A stretch of 64,000 bases of DNA from a virus: the IMG/VR virus record IMGVR_UViG_3300033141_005269, positions 13,416 to 77,415 of that record. One strand, given 5' to 3'. Under the pieces are notes generated by a model. That model made no database searches. It worked only from the letters and a program-made list of their open reading frames with translations, and was not told the DNA's origin. Made by a program: the position numbers and the translations under genes. This document shows positions 35,294 through 60,890 of the stretch, one piece after another. Every line of letters starts with the position of its first letter. Within the stretch, counting starts at the first letter, position 1.

Positions 35294-35545
35294 TCACTTG
35301 GTGAGCTGAATTTCGATTGTTGAGACCCGAGTTACTTTTCCTTCGTTTTCGAGTTCCTCTGTGCCAATTTGAACGCTTTGAACCGAAGCTGAAAGCGTCC
35401 GAGCGGCTACTTGTGCAACATCAACGGCATGACTGATTGCACGTCCTCTAGCCTTAATGACTACTTCTGGTTCCTCGTTGAAAGCGTTTACGCATGCCAA
35501 AACGTAAACCCATGTCGGCTTTTTACCTACGAGAACTTCCTGCAT
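35294..35545 (-). CDS. albA: Alba DNA/RNA-binding protein
   Basis: VLVGKKP..VYV, VVIKARGRAISHAVDVA, IGTEE, VSTIEIQL: the canonical archaeal Alba signature. Confidence 0.95.
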   Translation of the reverse strand: MQEVLVGKKPTWVYVLACVNAFNEEPEVVIKARGRAISHAVDVAQVAARTLSASVQSVQIGTEELENEGKVTRVSTIEIQLTK

Positions 35546-38174
35546 GTCAAGTCCTCCAAAATTATCCAAGCGAATTAGCTATCATAAAAACTTCGAAGCG
35601 TTTCATGAATTCATCGAGAGAAATAATCCCCATTACGAATTCCATGACTAAATGCTTTTGCTTCTTGTTTCGAAGGTCAAGAGTATCACCAAGAATTTTC
35701 ATAGTTTTCACAAATTTATCTTCGATACGCAAGGTTATTCCGCCATAAGCATGTAATTGAATAATTTTGTATTCTGATTGAAAGAGAAGTCTATAAAATA
35801 ACATGCGTCTAATCGAATGATGCATCCCAAAATATATCCATTTTCCGTTGTCTTTAATTAGAACATGCGGCCCAGCGAATCCACGATACCATAGCGTAAT
35901 CATCGCCATGAAGTTTAATCCTCCAAAAGCTCATTTTGGCTTGCCCAATAAATTTTCAATTTGAATCGGAGAATTCGAAATAACTGCTTTGCCATTATGC
36001 CCAATAAGCCGTTGCGCGTCATCCGGAAATTTAAGTCTAATAATTATCGGTCGTCCAGTTTGTATCGAGAATCGAATTGCTTCGTAAATATCTGTCCAAG
36101 CGCGAACAGGAGGAAGAATGCACCCTTGTCGATAATATCGCATAAGCTTTTTGAATGAAGTGACATGATAAACAATCATGGAAATCCTCCAAAAATGAAT
36201 TAAGAGGAAGTTGCATTTACTTCTTCGATAGATAAGACATATCCTCGAATTTCAAAGCCAAGAATTGTAAACCATGGCTGATTAATGAAAGTTATTTTAT
36301 ATGTTTTGCCTACTTCCAAATTCACGAAGCCAATAAGCCGATAGCTCACATCTTGGTCTCCATAGACTCGAGCCCAAACATTTGTGTGTTGACCGAAGCG
36401 TGTGCTATGCTCGATAGCTTGAACCGTCACTGTAACTTCATATGTTTGCCCAGCAAAAGTTAGAGCGTATAAATATGAACCACCATAAACTACACCAACA
36501 AGAATTCCAAGAACAATGAGTACGGCTATCGCCGAGGCTAATAAGTCATATTTGTCCATTTTAATCCTCCAAATATAAAAAATAGGGGAGTTTATTTGTA
36601 GAAGCTGATTGGATATGGAGGTCTTGTCTGGTCAAACAAAACCGCAAAGACTGAACCCCAAGCTGAAGCAAACCACTGATTAGCTACTCGAAACAGCTTG
36701 ATATCCTCGCACGCCTCGAAAGAGATTATTGGGTCTCGTCTATCGAAGAACACTCGAGTGTTTTTGGGGATTTTCAACTGAATAGTTGGAGTTCGAATTG
36801 TGAAGCCCTTGAATAGAACACCACTGAGCAAATCGTAAGCCTCCAAAACTATTAATCAACTAATCGCTTCGAAATTTTATCATCATCTAAAGGTTCGAGA
36901 CAATTTGGACAAATGAATTTATCAAAATCATAGCTCATTATGAAATGCTCATCGTCGCAACCCTTATGATAGAATCCGTCACGGCGAAAATGAAATCTGC
37001 CAAGAACCTTACAAGTTGAATGTCCTTGATAAATAATATCATCGAGAATAGAGCCACAATGAGGACAGATTATCCTCTTATCTCCCTTTATTGCATGAGC
37101 CAACCGCTTTGCTTCAATTGAATTATTCATATTAATCCTCCAAAATTAGAATTAGTAAACTCGAAAGCCACCACAATTAAGGCAGAAGTTAGCCCATTTT
37201 TCCACAAGCTTTCTGTCGAGGTGATAACCGGGCGGCAAAAACTCTTCTATCTCCTTTTTCTTCTTTTCGAATTTGCAAGTTAGGGCATTGAAAATTGCCT
37301 CGACATCATCTTTTCCGTGGAGAAATTCAAGAACCCTTCGACCTATCTTTTCGGCGTCTTCTTGCTCGATTAAAAACCCATCGTTATAAAGACCAACTTG
37401 AAACTTGTAATATTTTCGAGTTTCTTTATTTCCATCTTCATCCTCGATTTCGATTTCCATTTCCTCTTTTAGAAAATCATGGCAAAGAATGTAAACTAAA
37501 CCCCATATTGGTGTCCAATACCACCAGTTTAGCGAGAAAAATTCTCCGTCTTTGTTCTTCGGGTTAATGCCAACAATGTCCACTCCCAAGATAAATCCTC
37601 CAAATAAAAATGGAAAATTACTTAATTCTGCGATAAGGTATTTGCTCGATTTCGAAGCTGATGAAGACTTTATGTCTTCGAACCTCGAAAGAAACATCCT
37701 TTGCCTCGAGTACTTTAAGTATCATTAGAACCTCATCAAGAGTTATATTTTCTGTATCGTTGGTAATCATTTCTGCGACCTCCGATTATCAAAATGAGAG
37801 CCTTGAACCAGAACGAATTGATTATTTTTGCGAATTGTTTGGAAAGCTCTTGGGAACTCAAAAGTTTTTCCTCCTCGAAGAGATTTTAGCTTCGATAAGA
37901 ATCAGTGCTGAAGAAAGCACGATGACTATCGAGAAGCTCCAGAAAATCATTTGGGTTGAAATCAACTGATAGCCTCCAAAAAGAGCTTATGCGAGATAAT
38001 AGACTAAAGGTTTTCCTTTCGAATCAGTAGCTAAAATCCATTTGCCCTTCCATTTGCCGTTTGCCTCGAATTGTTTTTCGAGTAAGAAGTAGAGGGTATG
38101 ATAACCGTTACTCCCAAGAATCATTCTTTTTCCGAGCTTGAACCTTCGCAAATTTGAACCTCCAATTATTTTCA

Positions 38175-38622
38175 CGGGACAAGGCGGGAAAGGGCTTTCC
38201 CTTACCGAGCCAGCTTTTCAGCTGACCGCTCCACGCAGGGAGGAACTCGCTTCGAGTCTGCCCTACAAGGCTTTTCACTGTTCGCCTTATGCGATGCCCT
38301 TCGAGCTTCATATCTCGAGGAAAGCTTGGAGCTGGGTGCCTCACAACCCGAGCACTTTAGCTCGAGCTGCTTCGTCTTACTGGAGGTGTTCGACAACTCT
38401 CTCCTTTCAGTTATGGAGAAGAGCCGGCACTCGCCCGAGCGGTCACCCGCTACTCTCGCCTTGTTGCCCGCCCTCGAGGCCAGGTCGGCTCTATGCCTCT
38501 GATTCGCTTGGCATAAGGTGGAGGACGCCTTCCAACTCGCAGTCGGAGCTGGAGTTGCCGCCTGCACTCCCGAGGGTTCGGCGATGAGCTTCTCCTTTCA
38601 CTGCAGTCCCGCCTCATTCCCA
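38175..38622 (-). ncRNA. GC-rich multi-hairpin structured RNA domain (~450 nt) of unknown class
   Basis: Terminal pairing GGGAAUGAGGCGGGA / UCCCGCCUUGUCCC. Many hairpins, e.g. UCCAGCUC/GAGUUGGA, GCAGCUCGAGC/GCUCGGGUUGU, GGUCAGCU-GAAA-AGCUGGCU. G-U pairs favour the minus strand. Confidence 0.65.
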
Positions 38623-38715
38623 CTCAAAAATTCGAGAAGGACGATTTACGAGCTGAACCTTACACCCTCGCAAACTCCTTCTCATAGTTAATCTTTTTGG
38701 CTCAGAGCACGGGAT
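38601..38715 (-). ncRNA. 115-nt rod-shaped BHB intron
   Basis: CUUUC-GCAG-AA^A-UCCCG ... CGGGA-CUGC-AG^U-GAAAG; internal stems GAGAAGGA/UCCUUCUC and GUUUGCGAG/CUCGUAAAU. Confidence 0.7.
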
Positions 38716-38731
38716 TTCTGCGAAAGCTCTT

Positions 38732-39290
38732 TTCTGCCCGAAGCTCCTTCTTGCGAGGGAGGATTTGACTCCTCGAGAACCTCGCCTCAACAGAAAAAGA
38801 AAGGGGAATTTGAGATTTATTTAGATTTCTTCTTGGGCTTTTCCTTCTTGACAGAACGCCGAGCGACAATTGCCTTGATTTCGCTTGGTACTCGTTTGAT
38901 TGGTTTGATTGGCGTTCCTGCTTTTTCTTCCAGCATCTCCTTTGCTTCCTCGTCCACGAAGCGAATCGCTTTGCTTAATGGACGAGCCTTCTCGTTATAA
39001 GGAGCTCTTGCTTCTTTGAGTTGAGCTTGTAGCTCTTCGAGCTCCTTATGGGCTCTTTGGAGATGCGGGATTACTGAAGTGTCGCCTTTCTGAATCAGCT
39101 GAACAAAAAACTTGTTTAGCTGACCAGACACCGCACTTTTTGCCTGAACAAGAGCTTTGGTTGCCTTGTTCTTCTCGCTGTTTATCTCTTTACGCCCGAA
39201 GCTTAAGCCCAATCGATAGTAGTAGAGCCTTTCCGCTGGAGTTAAATCAGTGTCGGACATTTTTAATCCCTTTCGATAGGGAGCTTCGGT
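38732..39290 (-). other. BHB/BHL-bounded 559-nt segment containing a complete ORF (putative circular mRNA)
   Basis: AAAGCUCUU-CUGU-AA^A-CCGAAGCUCC ... GGAGCUUCGG-GCAG-AA^A-AGAGCUUU. Confidence 0.75.
38817..39260 (-). CDS. Basic coiled-coil protein with Lys-rich tail
   Basis: 147 aa; heptads KELEELQAQLKE; C-terminus KKEKPKKKSK; GGGA SD. Confidence 0.75.
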   Translation of the reverse strand: MSDTDLTPAERLYYYRLGLSFGRKEINSEKNKATKALVQAKSAVSGQLNKFFVQLIQKGDTSVIPHLQRAHKELEELQAQLKEARAPYNEKARPLSKAIRFVDEEAKEMLEEKAGTPIKPIKRVPSEIKAIVARRSVKKEKPKKKSK

Positions 39291-39320
39291 TTACAGAAGA
39301 GCTTTAACTCCCCGTCCAGC

Positions 39321-39604
39321 CTCGTGGCATATAAAAAATATGGGCTTTTAAAGAATCGGTTGGAGCCTAACGGCTTTCCAATATTCTGAATGCTCAAAAG
39401 CTTCTTTGTAAAGTTCGTAGTCTTCTCTGCGAATTTTCCTGATAAACGCTTGTTTTTCGATAATTTGAAAATCTTCTGTTTTTTCGAACAAGACTTTATG
39501 AGAATTCCTGAAATGCTCGATTAGCTGTTGCTCAATCCGTTCAAGTGTCAGCCCTATAAATCTCTGGTTACACTTTCGACATCTCGCCCAATATGGCATT
39601 TTAG
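39321..39604 (-). other. BHL-like-bounded 284-nt segment containing a complete ORF
   Basis: CCGUCCAG-CGUG-AG^C ... CACG-AG^G-CUGGACGG: 8-bp outer stem and perfect 4-bp helix; inner stem weak. Confidence 0.55.
39348..39599 (-). CDS. Small C2H2-like zinc-binding protein
   Basis: CRKC...EHFRNSH. Confidence 0.65.
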   Translation of the reverse strand: MPYWARCRKCNQRFIGLTLERIEQQLIEHFRNSHKVLFEKTEDFQIIEKQAFIRKIRREDYELYKEAFEHSEYWKAVRLQPIL

Positions 39605-39892
39605 CTCACGCTGGACGGTCTGGAGAAGCTCGTTGTTAGCGTTCTCACTTGTCCGTTCCCCGCCCTCCCCTCGCCCGCTACGCTTTATCCTTAAGGCGAG
39701 ATTCGTTACGCCTTAAGATTCAGCGCTCGTTTCTACACCGTCCGCCCGCATTACGACGCACGATAAACCATAACGTGCGTCCGTCGGTACGGTGTATCCC
39801 GTCGTGCGTCGTGTCGCCACGAGCGCACTTAACGGTTTGTTGGTTTTTGCACATACGTGCAATAGGCACGGTGTGCTTATCCAAACCGTTTG
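39605..39892 (-). ncRNA. Structured non-coding leader
   Basis: Nested inverted repeats AACGGUUUG/CAAACCGUU, GCGCUCGU/ACGAGCGC, UACACCGU/ACGGUGUA, CUUAAGGCG/CGCCUUAAG; TATA-like elements at about 39905-39930. Confidence 0.55.
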
Positions 39893-40234
39893 GGTGTCGG
39901 AAATATATAAAAAAGGAATATTATTTAAGCCTTTATAACATGCTATAATATATGAAACAAATATTTTATATCGAATATTATATAATTTGGTTTATCCTTG
40001 ACAAACAACCAAAAAGGAATTATGGGCAAGGCACGAATAACAACAAACGCTTTAAACCCTTTAACATCCCTTTATTTTTTGTTTTTGTCTTTTTGTGAAA
40101 ACCTTTTTCGAGAATAAGAGCAAATTATGCCTTTTGTATGTTGTTTGTGCCTCAACCTTATTCGATAACTTAACAATAGTAACTTATCCCGTATAGAACA
40201 CTTCAGCTATGTTATACTATACTATTAGAGCTTA

Positions 40235-40410
40235 TTACTCGAAATAATCAAGAAATTTCATAACTCGAATAAGTTTCAAGAATATCGAGATTAAGCTATA
40301 AGCTATTAGCTATAAGCTATAGAGGGCTGGAGGGCTGTTAAACATTCGAGATTAATCCATGCAGAGAAAACAAATTATTCGAGATTAATCAAATATTCGA
40401 GAAAAATCAC
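40235..40410. repeat. Iteron-like repeats in the AT-rich divergence region (candidate origin)
   Basis: 4 x 7-nt (A/T)AGCTAT at 40293-40320; TCGAGATTAA at about 40285, 40346 and 40379, plus ATTCGAGAAAAATC at 40395. Confidence 0.5.
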
Positions 40411-40550
40411 ATAGTCCGCCGAGCCTTAAGTAATAATAATAATATTCGGTGTTGGGCAGAGGGAAAGGGAAAGATGCTTAACCATTACTTTCCAAGTGAG
40501 TACATGGAAATAGGCGAAAATTTAAATAGAGAAAAGCGAAAAAGAGTTCA

Positions 40551-40955
40551 GTGATTCCGATGTGGATTTTGATAATTGGCTTCTTGATTTTGTATGGATT
40601 AGCAAAGCTTTTTAATTTATTGTCTGAAGAACCTACTTCATACTCGATCGAGTGTTCGAGACCTATGGGCTCGGAACCACCAACTCCAGGACCGGAAACA
40701 AATCCTATTATTCGCGGTCATATTTTCGAGCAACAAGCGCCCTTGCTAAAATTTCCTGAAGATATGCGAGATGCTCGCTTTATTGGGGGACCAGTTGATT
40801 ATGTAATATTCAAGAATTGTTCTAAGGGCGGTCCTGTGGAAATACTCTTCGTTGAAGTTAAATCAGGAAGTTCGAATTTGAGTAAGCGAGAAGAATTAAT
40901 AAAAGAAGCCGTATTGAATAAAAGGGTGAAATGGCTCGAAGTGAGGAGATCATAA
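40551..40955 (+). CDS. Archaeal Holliday-junction-resolvase-like endonuclease (Endonuc_Holl type) with N-terminal TM helix
   Basis: RGHIFEQQAP, DARFIGGPVDYVIF, FVEVKSG..LSKRE. Confidence 0.85.
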   Translation: MIPMWILIIGFLILYGLAKLFNLLSEEPTSYSIECSRPMGSEPPTPGPETNPIIRGHIFEQQAPLLKFPEDMRDARFIGGPVDYVIFKNCSKGGPVEILFVEVKSGSSNLSKREELIKEAVLNKRVKWLEVRRS

Positions 40956-40967
40956 AAACTTTGGGCA

Positions 40968-42203
40968 GTGAGTGAGTTGAAACAGGTTGTTTTGATAAAC
41001 TTACCAAGTCCATTTTTGATTGATGATCAGGTGATGCCTCCACTTGGTCTGCTTTACATTTCGAGTTATTTGAAGAAGCATAAAGTTTCAGTTGAAGTTA
41101 TCGATCTATCTGGGGGAGAAAAGTTTCCATCGATTAATGCGGATTGGATTGGAATATCTGCTACAACGCCACAGTATGAGGAAGCCTTGAGAATATTAAC
41201 GAAGATTAAAGCGAGAAATCGATATCAGAGAGTTATTATAGGCGGACCTCATGCGACATGCATGGGCGAAAAATTACTCTTCGATGGATTCGATGGAGTT
41301 GTAATAGGCGAGGGGGAACGGGCAATGTATAAAATAGTTTGCTTCGGAAACGATGTTTTGCCAGTAGTCCAAGAACCAGAAATTGAAGATTTAGATATTT
41401 TACCGTTTCCAGATCGAGAAGCGATTAATTTGGAAAAATACAAATACTTTATAGACGACGAACGAGCAACAACGATGATTACCTCGAGAGGGTGCCCCTT
41501 TCATTGTGCGTTTTGTTCCCATACCTGGGAATCAGTGCGATTTAGGAGCGCTGGGAACGTGCTCGCAGAAGTCGATGAAATACAGAAAAAGTTTGGGTAC
41601 AACGCGATAATGTTCTATGACGATAATTTTACTTTGAACATCTCGAGGTTGAAAAAGATTTGCAAAGGCTTGAAAAAACGCGGTGTGAAATGGCGATGTT
41701 TGGTTAGAGCGAATTTAGTTAATGAAGAATTATTAAAGAGGATGAGAAAGAGTGGATGCGTCGAAATATTAGCAGGCTTGGAGTCAATGGACCAAGATAT
41801 CTTAAATGGAATAAATAAGGGAACGACTGTGGAACAAAATTATGAAGTTACCAGGCTTGCAAGGAAAGCCGGTTTGCGTTTCAAGGCATTATTAATGATT
41901 GGATTGCCAGGAGAGAGTCACGAGAGCGTGGAGAAGATTCGAGAGTATTTGGAGAAAATGCAACCAGATGATTTCGACTTAACGATTTACACACCTTATC
42001 CAAAGAGCTTAATTTGGGAATTCCCTGAAATGTTCGATATTAAGATAGACTACGAGAAACTTGGTTGGTATAAGGGTAGAATTGGAGAGTATAGGTGCGC
42101 CGTGAGCACTTCGAAATTAAGAAGCGATGAAATTGTAAGATTGCGTGATGAAATCGAGAAAGAATTCAGCTACCTCAAGAAAAGTAATAAAACATTCTAT
42201 TAA
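40968..42203 (+). CDS. B12-binding radical SAM protein
   Basis: PPLGLLYISS, IGGPHAT, SRGCPFHCAFC, DDNF, GLES, IGLPGE. Confidence 0.93.
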   Translation: MSELKQVVLINLPSPFLIDDQVMPPLGLLYISSYLKKHKVSVEVIDLSGGEKFPSINADWIGISATTPQYEEALRILTKIKARNRYQRVIIGGPHATCMGEKLLFDGFDGVVIGEGERAMYKIVCFGNDVLPVVQEPEIEDLDILPFPDREAINLEKYKYFIDDERATTMITSRGCPFHCAFCSHTWESVRFRSAGNVLAEVDEIQKKFGYNAIMFYDDNFTLNISRLKKICKGLKKRGVKWRCLVRANLVNEELLKRMRKSGCVEILAGLESMDQDILNGINKGTTVEQNYEVTRLARKAGLRFKALLMIGLPGESHESVEKIREYLEKMQPDDFDLTIYTPYPKSLIWEFPEMFDIKIDYEKLGWYKGRIGEYRCAVSTSKLRSDEIVRLRDEIEKEFSYLKKSNKTFY

Positions 42204-58566: not shown

Positions 58567-59751
58567 TTGAAACTGCTTGTAATGGCGGATAGCTGGCATA
58601 CGATCAGTGGTTTCGCTACTGCAATGCGCGGGCTAGCTGATGGGCTTGGGAAAGTTGGTCATGAAGTAGGTTATCTCGGATGGCAAACCTTTGGTCAGCC
58701 CATGGGACCACCGGTTTATTTCCATAACCGGAAATTACATTTTGAAGCATTACCAAATACTGGCGGATCGCAGTTTGGACAGCGAGCCTTGCCTTATTGG
58801 ATCGCGAAAAAGCAACCCGATGCGATAATCACACTTGGCGACTTCTGGATGCTATCTTGGATGTGGAAAAGCGATATCCCACAAACTTGGGTTTACTGGT
58901 ATCCGATTGACGGTGTGCCAATAACAGATGATATTAAGCGAATGCTTCGAAGAATTGATATTCCAGTTTGCTTTTCCAAATTCGGTCATAACCTAAGCAC
59001 GGAAGCTGGGATAAGAAATTATTATATCCCGCATGGGGTGAACACAAAAATTTTCAAACCATTGAGTGGAGAAGAAAAGCGCGAAGCAAAGATCGAATAT
59101 GGACTGCCACCCGACAAGAAAGTGATAATTCGAATTGATCGTAATCAGAGACGGAAGAAATTACCACAAACACTTCAAGCATTTAAGATATTCCATAAAT
59201 GGTTTCCGGATACTGTACTGTACTTGCATATGGATAAGCGAGATCGCGAAGGATGGGACTTACAATTTATCGCTGAGAAGCGCCTTGGATTGAAGGTTGG
59301 AAAAGATGTATTTTTCCCTCCGCCAAGTAAAATGCGTGACTTCATGCTCGGGGTTGGTGAAGAGGAACTCAATAGGGTTTACAACATGGGCTGGGTGCAT
59401 GATCGTTTAACTGGAGGCGAGGGATTTGGCCTGACAAGTTTACAGAGCATGTCGGCTGGAATACCTTGTGTTGGAACAAATTATACGACAAGCGAAGAAT
59501 TATTCGGAGATTGCGGATTGCTTGTGAAAGTTCAGTTTTGGGAAATTGGCGGAGCTGGAGTTGATCGCGCATGGGCAGATCCGGAAGATGCGGCGGCTAA
59601 ATTCAAGGAGTTATATGAAAACCCTGATTTGTATGATAAATTCAGTAAACGAGCCGTCGAGAAAGCTCGAAACGAATATGATTGGGAGAAAGCCGTGATA
59701 CCAGCTTTTGATAAATTACTTCGAGAACTTGTGCCGGAGTTGAGGAAATGA
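58567..59751 (+). CDS. GT-B (GT4-like) glycosyltransferase
   Basis: SGFAT, IPHGVN, RNQRRK, GEGFGL...SAGIP. Confidence 0.9.
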   Translation: MKLLVMADSWHTISGFATAMRGLADGLGKVGHEVGYLGWQTFGQPMGPPVYFHNRKLHFEALPNTGGSQFGQRALPYWIAKKQPDAIITLGDFWMLSWMWKSDIPQTWVYWYPIDGVPITDDIKRMLRRIDIPVCFSKFGHNLSTEAGIRNYYIPHGVNTKIFKPLSGEEKREAKIEYGLPPDKKVIIRIDRNQRRKKLPQTLQAFKIFHKWFPDTVLYLHMDKRDREGWDLQFIAEKRLGLKVGKDVFFPPPSKMRDFMLGVGEEELNRVYNMGWVHDRLTGGEGFGLTSLQSMSAGIPCVGTNYTTSEELFGDCGLLVKVQFWEIGGAGVDRAWADPEDAAAKFKELYENPDLYDKFSKRAVEKARNEYDWEKAVIPAFDKLLRELVPELRK

Positions 59752-60890
59752 ATATTCTGCTTGTAAACCCATATAGAAGAGCTGGTGGTGCTGAAGTTCG
59801 GCAACGTTTATTACTCGAAGAGTTCCAAAAGCATCCAGCGATCGATGCTATTCATTTTTTGTATTTAGGTGAGCCGAAACATAAACAAGAAGGCAAAATA
59901 CATTTCTGGCAGACAACTCGAGGAATGATTCCTAAAATAACTGGGAAGATAATCAAGAAATTTAAAATCGAGATAATGCAGCAACATAATTTCCAAGAAA
60001 TTGGAACAAAAGCTGTTATAATTGCGAAGAAAATGAATATACCGGTTATCTATGTAGCTCATGACTATAGAGCGCTTTGTCCACAACATTTTATGATGGA
60101 TGTGTTTCACGGCATTGACTCTGAGATTTGTTATGAGATAGATTTCGATAAATGCTCCCGTTGTGTTGGGTGGTATAATACATGGCTAACTGGACAGTAT
60201 AGAAACGATTTGCAAGAGTGTGATGTCGGAGTAGCCGCGAGTAAACGAATGATAGATATTTTCGAGAGAAATGATTTTTTGGTTGGAAAATGGGAAGTTA
60301 TAACTCCTTGGGTAGATATAAAGAATTTCTATCCGGAACCCAACGTATCGAAGAAATTACAGTGTTGCACGATAAACAACTACATACCGCACAAGGGCGC
60401 GTGGGTGGTTGCTAAAGCATGGAAAATAGTTTCGAAAAGACTGCCACAAGCTCATCTCATAATGCAAGGCGACCAACGCTGGTTACCACAACTCGGCCAA
60501 ATGTTGAGGTATTACAAACTACGAAATGTTGCTTTATTGTCTCGAATGAAACTTGAAGACTTAAGGAGATTATACACTCAATCGTGGTTTACTATAGTCG
60601 CTAGTATTTGGGAAGCAACTTTCGAATTAATTCGAGGAGAGAGTTTATGTTGTGGCACGCCAGTAATCGCGAGTCGAATAGGAAGTATACCGGAGACAAG
60701 TAAATTCGGGCATGTTTTATTTGAGCCGAGAAATTATAAAGAATTAGCGGATTGCATGATTGATTTATTCATGGATAAAGTTGAAGCTGAAAAACTCGCT
60801 CGCGAAGGAATGAAATGGGCACGTGAGGAGCTTAACCCCACAAGAGCGGCTGAGGAATTTATAAATTTATATACGAGGTTAATTGAATAG
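59748..60890 (+). CDS. GT4 glycosyltransferase
   Basis: GGAE, HDY, HKG, SIWEATF...ESLCCGTPVIAS. Confidence 0.9.
   Translation: MNILLVNPYRRAGGAEVRQRLLLEEFQKHPAIDAIHFLYLGEPKHKQEGKIHFWQTTRGMIPKITGKIIKKFKIEIMQQHNFQEIGTKAVIIAKKMNIPVIYVAHDYRALCPQHFMMDVFHGIDSEICYEIDFDKCSRCVGWYNTWLTGQYRNDLQECDVGVAASKRMIDIFERNDFLVGKWEVITPWVDIKNFYPEPNVSKKLQCCTINNYIPHKGAWVVAKAWKIVSKRLPQAHLIMQGDQRWLPQLGQMLRYYKLRNVALLSRMKLEDLRRLYTQSWFTIVASIWEATFELIRGESLCCGTPVIASRIGSIPETSKFGHVLFEPRNYKELADCMIDLFMDKVEAEKLAREGMKWAREELNPTRAAEEFINLYTRLIE

Follow-up and report, generated by a model that had tools for sequence, protein, structure and literature searches.

Can a virus have whole genes cut out of its own messenger RNA by the enzymes that archaea use on the precursors of their ribosomal RNA (rRNA)? 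This question is raised by a 1-kb cassette in a stretch of 64,000 nucleotides (nt), referred to here as the window, which represents bases 13416-77415 of the 77,415-bp IMG/VR virus record IMGVR_UViG_3300033141_005269, a record with direct terminal repeats. Since the genes encoded in the window include a large terminase, a Mu-like portal, an Alba protein and a nuclease related to archaeal Holliday-junction resolvases, the source is assigned to an archaeal tailed virus, with about 40% GC. The cassette lies on the minus strand at 39631-38586 (window coordinates are used throughout), where a direct reading gives a 10-bp closing helix and three successive motifs of the bulge-helix-bulge (BHB) kind arranged around two open reading frames (ORF1 and ORF2) and a hairpin RNA. 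In a strict BHB, two 3-nt bulges on opposite strands are separated by a 4-bp helix and bounded by flanking helices. EndA, the endonuclease with which archaea excise tRNA introns, recognises the BHB independently of its context, and it also cuts rRNA stems and an mRNA leader (PMC7714728). A preliminary description of the locus had read it as a viral BHB processing system; the geometry of the motifs and BHB splicing elsewhere in the virus speak for that reading, while one of its three sites seems better replaced and the helix that it placed around the whole turned out to be exclusive with the motif that replaces that site. In the analysis given below, in which every structure is a prediction at 37 C and a single genome is covered, the locus is interpreted as a probable EndA/RtcB processing cassette.

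Motifs and passengers of the cassette

The following features make up the cassette:

39631-39622 and 38595-38586, minus strand: closing helix, GAGCUUCUCC against GGAGAAGCUC, 10 bp, perfect complementarity
39610..39631, minus strand: 5' half of BHB-A, with outer GAGCUU (39631-39626), central CUCC (39625-39622), bulge AGA (39621-39619) and inner CCGUCCAGC (39618-39610)
39321..39604, minus strand: insert 1 of the preliminary description, 284 nt, a relaxed motif nested in BHB-A, -23.9 kcal/mol
39348..39599, minus strand: ORF1, 83 amino acids (aa), C-x2-C...H-x4-H zinc finger
39299..39320, minus strand: 3' half of BHB-A, with inner GCUGGACGG (39320-39312), central GGAG (39311-39308), bulge UUA (39307-39305) and outer AAGCUC (39304-39299)
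39280..39305, minus strand: 5' half of site 2, with outer AAAGCUCUU (39305-39297), central CUGU (39296-39293), bulge AAA (39292-39290) and inner CCGAAGCUCC (39289-39280)
38817..39260, minus strand: ORF2, 147 aa, predicted long antiparallel helical hairpin with a basic tail (model pLDDT 84.7)
38723..38747, minus strand: 3' half of site 2, with inner GGAGCUUCGG (38747-38738), central GCAG (38737-38734), bulge AA (38733-38732) and outer AAGAGCUUU (38731-38723)
38709..38726, minus strand: 5' half of site 3, with outer CUUUC (38726-38722), central GCAG (38721-38718), bulge AAA (38717-38715) and inner UCCCGU (38714-38709)
38601..38715, minus strand: insert 3, a rod-like hairpin RNA of 115 nt, minimum free energy (MFE) -40.5 kcal/mol, z = -3.25
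38586..38612, minus strand: 3' half of site 3, with inner GCGGGA (38612-38607), central CUGC (38606-38603), bulge AGU (38602-38600) and outer GAAAG (38599-38595), together with the 3' arm of the closing helix, GGAGAAGCUC (38595-38586)

An unbiased scan of the whole genome for strict 3-4-3 motifs on both strands ranked BHB-A (GAGCUU-CUCC-AGA-CCGUCCAGC / GCUGGACGG-GGAG-UUA-AAGCUC), a strict motif of 19 Watson-Crick pairs, second overall and first among all-Watson-Crick motifs. BHB-A had been overlooked in the preliminary description; it encloses ORF1, and the piece predicted to be excised is 314 nt long (39619-39306). It borrows the 5' arm of the closing helix (39631-39622), whose downstream partner GGAGAAGCUC is GGAG-UUA-AAGCUC minus the bulge, and BHB-A and the closing helix are mutually exclusive. 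In place of BHB-A the preliminary description had drawn a site 1 (CCGUCCAG CGUG AGC / CACG AGG CUGGACGG), in which the outer and central helices are good and both 3-nt bulges are present, but which lacks a real inner helix, a weakness that the description itself had admitted. A ribosome-binding-like element, GUGA, six bases before the ORF1 AUG, is inside the BHB-A piece, whereas site 1 cuts between the GUGA and the AUG. Judged by these sequence features, site 1 seems better replaced by the strict motif 39619-39306.

Site 2 has nine outer, four central (one of them G-U) and ten inner pairs around an excised piece of 559 nt (39290-38732), and site 3 (38715-38601) is a textbook hBHBh' motif. The strict geometry of an EndA substrate is thus found in BHB-A and site 3, and flanking helices are found in all three motifs, with outer/inner pair counts of 6/9 in BHB-A, 9/10 in site 2 and 5/6 in site 3. 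On the assumption that BHB-A and site 2 have duplicated cores, a pair of the central helix has changed from C-G to G-C in a compensated manner. All arms sit in intergenic spacers, outside the ORFs, and every arm carries GAGCUU or AAGCUC, by which neighbouring outer helices come to overlap: AAGCUC at 39304 is common to BHB-A and site 2, CUUU at 38725 is common to sites 2 and 3 (as had been pointed out before), and G38595 is used by both site 3 and the closing helix.

The 10-bp helix 39631-39622 / 38595-38586 described earlier is present and perfectly complementary, and the insert sizes given with it (284, 559 and 115 nt, with a remainder of 88 nt), the two quoted junction strings and the placement of ORF1 and ORF2 wholly inside inserts 1 and 2 agree with the sequence. 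Taken alone, the closing helix is unremarkable and does not exceed chance expectation (-20 kcal/mol, P = 0.004 per random window pair), because 10-bp inverted repeats are common genome-wide: the genome has 171 inverted repeats that pair perfectly over 10 bp or more inside 1.5 kb, compared with about 101 in shuffles. No target-site duplication was found at the flanks (CAAC on one side and AUCG on the other) and no transposase domain was found, on which grounds a transposon or miniature inverted-repeat transposable element with terminal inverted repeats was rejected.

The passengers had been said not to be endonucleases, and this was borne out: ORF1 has no Pfam or PHROG family, neither ORF1 nor ORF2 matches a nuclease family of Pfam or PHROG, and the folds are a zinc finger and a helical hairpin. 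Homologues of ORF1 are 77-84 aa long with 40-49% identity and invariant Cys and His positions, and the best fold match of ORF1 in PDB is the zinc finger of the archaeal virus protein AFV1p06 (2lvh, probability 0.97, E 0.066). ORF2 has homologues of 52-57% identity, and its model gave no match in PDB. For one homologue each of ORF1 and ORF2 the record names a single ENA contig of 4976 nt, which suggests conserved adjacency of the two genes. Residues 42-74 of ORF1 also match a 1346-aa protein, P0005, in 20 separate stretches (E 1.9e-13), and the C-terminal half of ORF1 may be the repeat unit of a large protein encoded elsewhere. In the rod RNA, a symmetric 4x4 internal loop UGAG/GAAU (38701-38704 / 38616-38619) lies between two helices and was matched to neither a kink-turn nor a C/D box motif. 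The opposite strand of the rod folds to -27.7 kcal/mol only, compared with -40.5 kcal/mol; this far weaker fold and the presence of G-U pairs point to RNA of the minus strand.

Splicing elsewhere in the virus, chance and folding

Two protein genes of the same virus contain inserts that follow BHB rules, and a motif of similar kind occurs in a third gene:

28480-29239, minus strand: insert of 760 nt in a DUF2201_N/VWA gene, carrying an endonuclease-like ORF
29973-29994, minus strand: mini-insert of 22 nt in the ATPase-like gene next to it, core GCCG/CGGC, bulges AGA/AUA
59979-60539, plus strand: BHB in a glycosyltransferase gene, TCGAG ATAA TGC AGCAACAT / ATGTTGCT TTAT TGT CTCGA

The DUF2201_N metallopeptidase domain is split, with profile positions 13-93 in 29205-29681 and positions 94-261 in 27332-28501, and the 239-aa ORF between the two halves matches a PHROG annotated as endonuclease. 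UGAC pairs with GUCA at the insert boundaries, the bulges being AGA and AAA and the inner stem 15 bp long, and a cut after the second nucleotide of each bulge gives the in-frame join V-T-D-S-L-N-N-D. The 22-nt mini-insert shifts the frame of the ATPase-like gene, and its removal leaves one open frame. The genome-wide scan also gave an 85-nt strict motif at 19382-19298. Since at least two viral protein genes need splicing by BHB rules to be restored, the host EndA very likely acts on transcripts of this virus. The gene introns have almost no outer helix, and therefore the host enzyme appears to tolerate relaxed motifs; in their 5' bulges, AGA, AAU and AGA, they are similar to the cassette, which has AGA, AAA and AAA. 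ORF1 and ORF2 are not homing endonucleases of the kind expected in a mobile BHB intron, whereas the gene introns of the same genome match phrog_5046.

To what extent could the cassette have arisen by chance? The best disjoint BHB scores in the 1061-nt cassette are 22, 19 and 14 (sum 55). Among 1306 dinucleotide shuffles of the cassette, scored with one 2-nt bulge allowed, the best hit did not exceed 18, the second disjoint hit 15 and the three-hit sum 42. The earlier statement that three successive splice-type motifs occur as a set is upheld by this comparison, none of the 1306 shuffles having reached the second-best score of 19. The arm duplexes, which tile 1 kb, have energies of -32.4 (BHB-A), -35.3 (site 2) and -24.5 kcal/mol, and the probability of a duplex of -30 kcal/mol or lower is about 1.7e-5 per random window pair. 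The combination of tiled motifs with EndA-type geometry is far beyond chance.

When folded with ViennaRNA, transcripts ending at 39295, 39280 or 38715 have BHB-A in their MFE structure, sites 2 and 3 are predicted in the full-length MFE structure, and the start codons of both ORFs fall in open loops of the predicted fold. Strong arm duplexes, structured flanks, open start codons and switch-like alternative pairings are also what would be seen if the long-range helices were real but uncut, closing each cistron into a loop and docking the GC-rich domains, as an exonuclease shield or for translation tuning, with the BHB geometry incidental. Two strict motifs and one near-strict 3-4-3 motif of the right polarity in three adjacent helices are, however, hard to get by accident. 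Moreover, because EndA recognises the BHB regardless of context and very likely already processes transcripts of this virus, strict motifs exposed on a viral transcript should be cut (PMC7714728). We regard uncut helices as unlikely, though by no means negligible.

Transcription, flanking domains and proposed processing

The signals and structured domains on either side of the motifs are as follows:

39904..39911, minus strand: perfect TATA-like box TTTATATA, with a start predicted at about 39880 from the usual archaeal TATA-to-start spacing
39632..39880, minus strand: 5' structured domain, about 55% GC, z = -3.7 against shuffles
39328..39338, minus strand: T6 tract and overlapping second TATA-like box TTTATATG (39335-39328)
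38170..38585, minus strand: 3' structured domain, 59% GC, z = -3.8 against shuffles

The start predicted at about 39880 is the exact beginning of the largest non-coding GC island of the genome (a bacterial promoter and terminator scan is inapplicable to archaea). The exons had been described as non-coding, in agreement with which the flanks are structured and GC-rich, and the ORFs overlapping them have no Pfam family and no homologues. Rfam gave no family in the window at the gathering score and none at E of 5 or below in 37900-40300. The absence of an Rfam match led us to reject a known RNA family for the cassette and its flanks, as well as a group I or group II intron, the ORFs being neither reverse transcriptase nor maturase; a tRNA or split tRNA was rejected after ARAGORN returned nothing on the window and on both in-silico spliced forms. 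No T-tract intervenes between the 3' domain and the next small ORF, which extends to 37987 and has a GGAGGU ribosome-binding site, and therefore the "exons" would be part of a polycistronic message.

Removal of the inserts in silico leaves an RNA of 723-753 nt in which the closing helix forms. The inserts might accordingly be ordinary selfish BHB introns in a viral non-coding RNA gene, with rings as by-products and the restoration of the ~720-750-nt RNA as the sole function. The large structured RNA closed by the 10-bp helix after removal, the non-coding nature of insert 3 and the several BHB introns with endonuclease-like ORFs in the genome are in line with such an origin. ORF1 and ORF2 are not nucleases, however, and their homologues, at about 50% identity and apparently together on one contig, suggest genes long kept by viruses, which makes selfish introns very unlikely in our estimate.

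The preliminary description had cautioned that T-tracts following both ORFs could terminate transcription. The tracts exist (T6 after ORF1, T5 after ORF2 and another T5 in the rod), but the worry is weak: a T6 also occurs inside the coding sequence of ORF2 (39110-39105) and runs of five or more T occur at 1.9 per kb in the sense strand of genes, so that such tracts do not seem to be efficient stops in this virus. Could ORF1 and ORF2 nevertheless be transcribed separately, each from its own TATA-like box to its own T-tract, with arms that never meet on one RNA and are DNA-level relics, for example of module duplication or of a mobile element? The box TTTATATG at 39335-39328 places a start about 25 nt downstream (at about 39305), which is the first base of the site-2 5' arm; T6 and T5 follow the ORFs; the shared GAGCUU/AAGCUC hexamer is common in the genome, and 10-bp inverted repeats are frequent. 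Against this, nothing would keep the 3' arms, which are located past the T-tracts, perfectly complementary, the T6 inside ORF2 demonstrates readthrough at such tracts, G-U pairs are unfit for a DNA-level repeat, and neither target-site duplication nor transposase was found; even an ORF2 RNA starting at about 39305 still has the whole of site 2. Separate units are in our judgement quite unlikely.

The explanation that we prefer, with a chance somewhat better than even, is that the leftward transcript from about 39880 is an EndA/RtcB substrate at three consecutive BHBs, from which ORF1, ORF2 and the rod are released as rings while the flanks are joined. That both arms are present on one RNA, that cleavage and ligation take place, the order of these events and any role of the rings are what we infer. 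In the nascent RNA, GAGCUUCUCC would pair with GGAG-UUA-AAGCUC to form the strict BHB around ORF1, followed by the near-strict BHB around ORF2 and then by the strict BHB around the 115-nt hairpin. EndA would cut after the second nucleotide of each bulge, and a host RtcB-type ligase would join the flanks and circularise the excised pieces, of about 314 (or 284), 559 and 115 nt. The joined flanks would let GAGCUUCUCC pair with GGAGAAGCUC, producing a structured RNA of ~720-750 nt that continues into the downstream genes. The ring junctions predicted from these cuts are GGGGAGUU joined to ACCGUCCA (314 nt) or GCCACGAG joined to CUAAAAUG (284 nt), GGGCAGAA joined to ACCGAAGC (559 nt) and GACUGCAG joined to AUCCCGUG (115 nt); the predicted exon joins are UUCUCCAG to AAAGCUCU, UCUGUAA to AAGAGC and CGCAGAA to UGAAAGG.

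Several observations weigh against such processing. Site 2 is not a strict 3-4-3 motif, being one nucleotide short, and its 3' bulge consists of AA, with a third nucleotide only on opening of the adjacent U-A pair; alternatively it can be viewed as one unpaired U opposite a 3-nt bulge. The overlapping outer helices (BHB-A with site 2, site 2 with site 3, and site 3 with the closing helix) cannot all form together; either they are used one after another during transcription, or some of them can be dispensed with, for which the protein-gene introns of the same virus, with almost no outer helix, set an example. In the equilibrium fold of the full 1731-nt RNA, the closing helix displaces BHB-A (probability ~1). 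The T6 between ORF1 and its 3' arm, the T5 between ORF2 and its 3' arm, and the TATA-like box before ORF2 could break the transcript into separate RNAs. Genome-wide there is no excess of strict BHB motifs: for minimum scores from 14 to 19 they number 131, 50, 15, 4, 3 and 2, against 121, 46, 17, 5.6, 2.6 and 1.3 in shuffled genomes, and motif counts alone are therefore uninformative. Finally, the strict BHB of the glycosyltransferase gene, with 17 pairs, all Watson-Crick, stands where splicing would be senseless: it bounds an in-frame stretch of 561 nt in the gene 59748-60890, the removal of which would delete about residues 78-264, across both glycosyltransferase domains. This motif is probably a chance occurrence.

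If rings are formed, they could serve as templates for ORF1 and ORF2, or their formation could remove both cistrons from the message. A more far-reaching version, in which the rings are translatable, exonuclease-resistant circular mRNAs of two of the first genes and the same cuts assemble the ~720-750-nt flank RNA, seems doubtful to us, with a small yet appreciable chance of being correct; bearing on it, the GUGA of ORF1 and the ribosome-binding site of ORF2 are both inside the rings, with the starts in predicted open loops.

An AT-rich spacer of about 600 bp around 40000 separates minus-strand genes, which run leftward, from plus-strand genes, which run rightward. At 40290-40400 (minus reading), TTAATCTCGA(A/T) occurs three times in this divergent spacer, along with a series of repeats resembling TAGCTTATAGC; this part adjoins the minimum of the cumulative GC skew and is a possible operator or origin region. 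The virus-encoded Alba gene is a further feature of the leftward strand:

35294-35545, minus strand: Alba, Pfam E 6.5e-13

As a clue to the host, the best matches of the viral DegT gene are mostly bacterial (35-46% identity). No close relative of TerL was found in IMG/VR, and no relatives' loci were found in the viral, metagenome or genome contigs searched with ORF1, ORF2, their alignments and protein P0012 as queries. Searches of GenBank phages by tblastn and blastn gave no matches. One DNA run, with a hydrothermal-vent label and a small share of words, yielded contigs on neighbouring genes and none over 38022-41027.

Known EndA substrates and significance

In phage T7, the early polycistronic transcript is processed by RNase III at local hairpins between genes, giving rise to linear mRNAs. 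The cassette would be comparable in that a virus lets a host nuclease of rRNA processing cut its first transcript between genes; it differs in the enzyme and the motif, and in that the T7 products are linear. The substrates known for EndA comprise tRNAs, rRNA precursors, one crenarchaeal mRNA and one haloarchaeal 5' untranslated region (PMC7714728). In archaeal rRNA operons, EndA cuts BHB processing stems, circular pre-16S and pre-23S RNAs are formed and the spacers are ligated (PMC7714728, PMC4238349, PMC10351888). As in the rRNA operon, the two sides of each cassette passenger would pair into a BHB-bearing helix, the units would lie in tandem on one transcript, and rings plus joined spacers are expected; unlike the operon, the cassette is viral, its passengers are two protein genes and a hairpin, and its helices are shorter and overlapping.

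A second class for comparison is provided by BHB introns with ORFs in archaeal rRNA genes, for which stable circles are described by Dalgaard and Garrett (1992), as cited in PMC4238349, and in PMC4496867. Like those introns, whose excised circle is described as holding a whole ORF, the cassette has BHB-bounded inserts with complete ORFs inside structured non-coding RNA. The ORFs of those introns are LAGLIDADG homing endonucleases, whereas the cassette ORFs encode a zinc-finger and a coiled-coil protein, and the cassette's host gene is an unclassified viral RNA. Rfam detected no rRNA passenger such as a unit of an archaeal rRNA operon has, and with neither rRNA nor a homing endonuclease as passenger, the cassette falls outside both classes. 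Action of EndA on mRNA has precedents in the BHB intron in the 5' untranslated region of Haloferax volcanii HVO_1309 and in the cbf5 pre-mRNA intron of Crenarchaeota (PMC7714728, PMC2738675). In the cassette, too, EndA would act on messenger RNA, beyond tRNA and rRNA, but those introns are short (46 nt and similar) and gene-free, whereas the cassette would lose whole cistrons.

Literature searches gave no description of BHB-bounded cistrons in archaeal viruses. If the proposed processing is real, the excision of whole viral cistrons would extend the list of EndA substrates and give archaeal viruses a new level at which genes are controlled, and these viruses would then exploit the rRNA-type pathway of cutting and circularisation. 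The cassette would also be a natural counterpart of the engineered BHB-based systems for circular-RNA expression. Should the rings be translated as well, they would be the first circular mRNA of natural origin, in archaea or in archaeal viruses, that encodes proteins other than nucleases.

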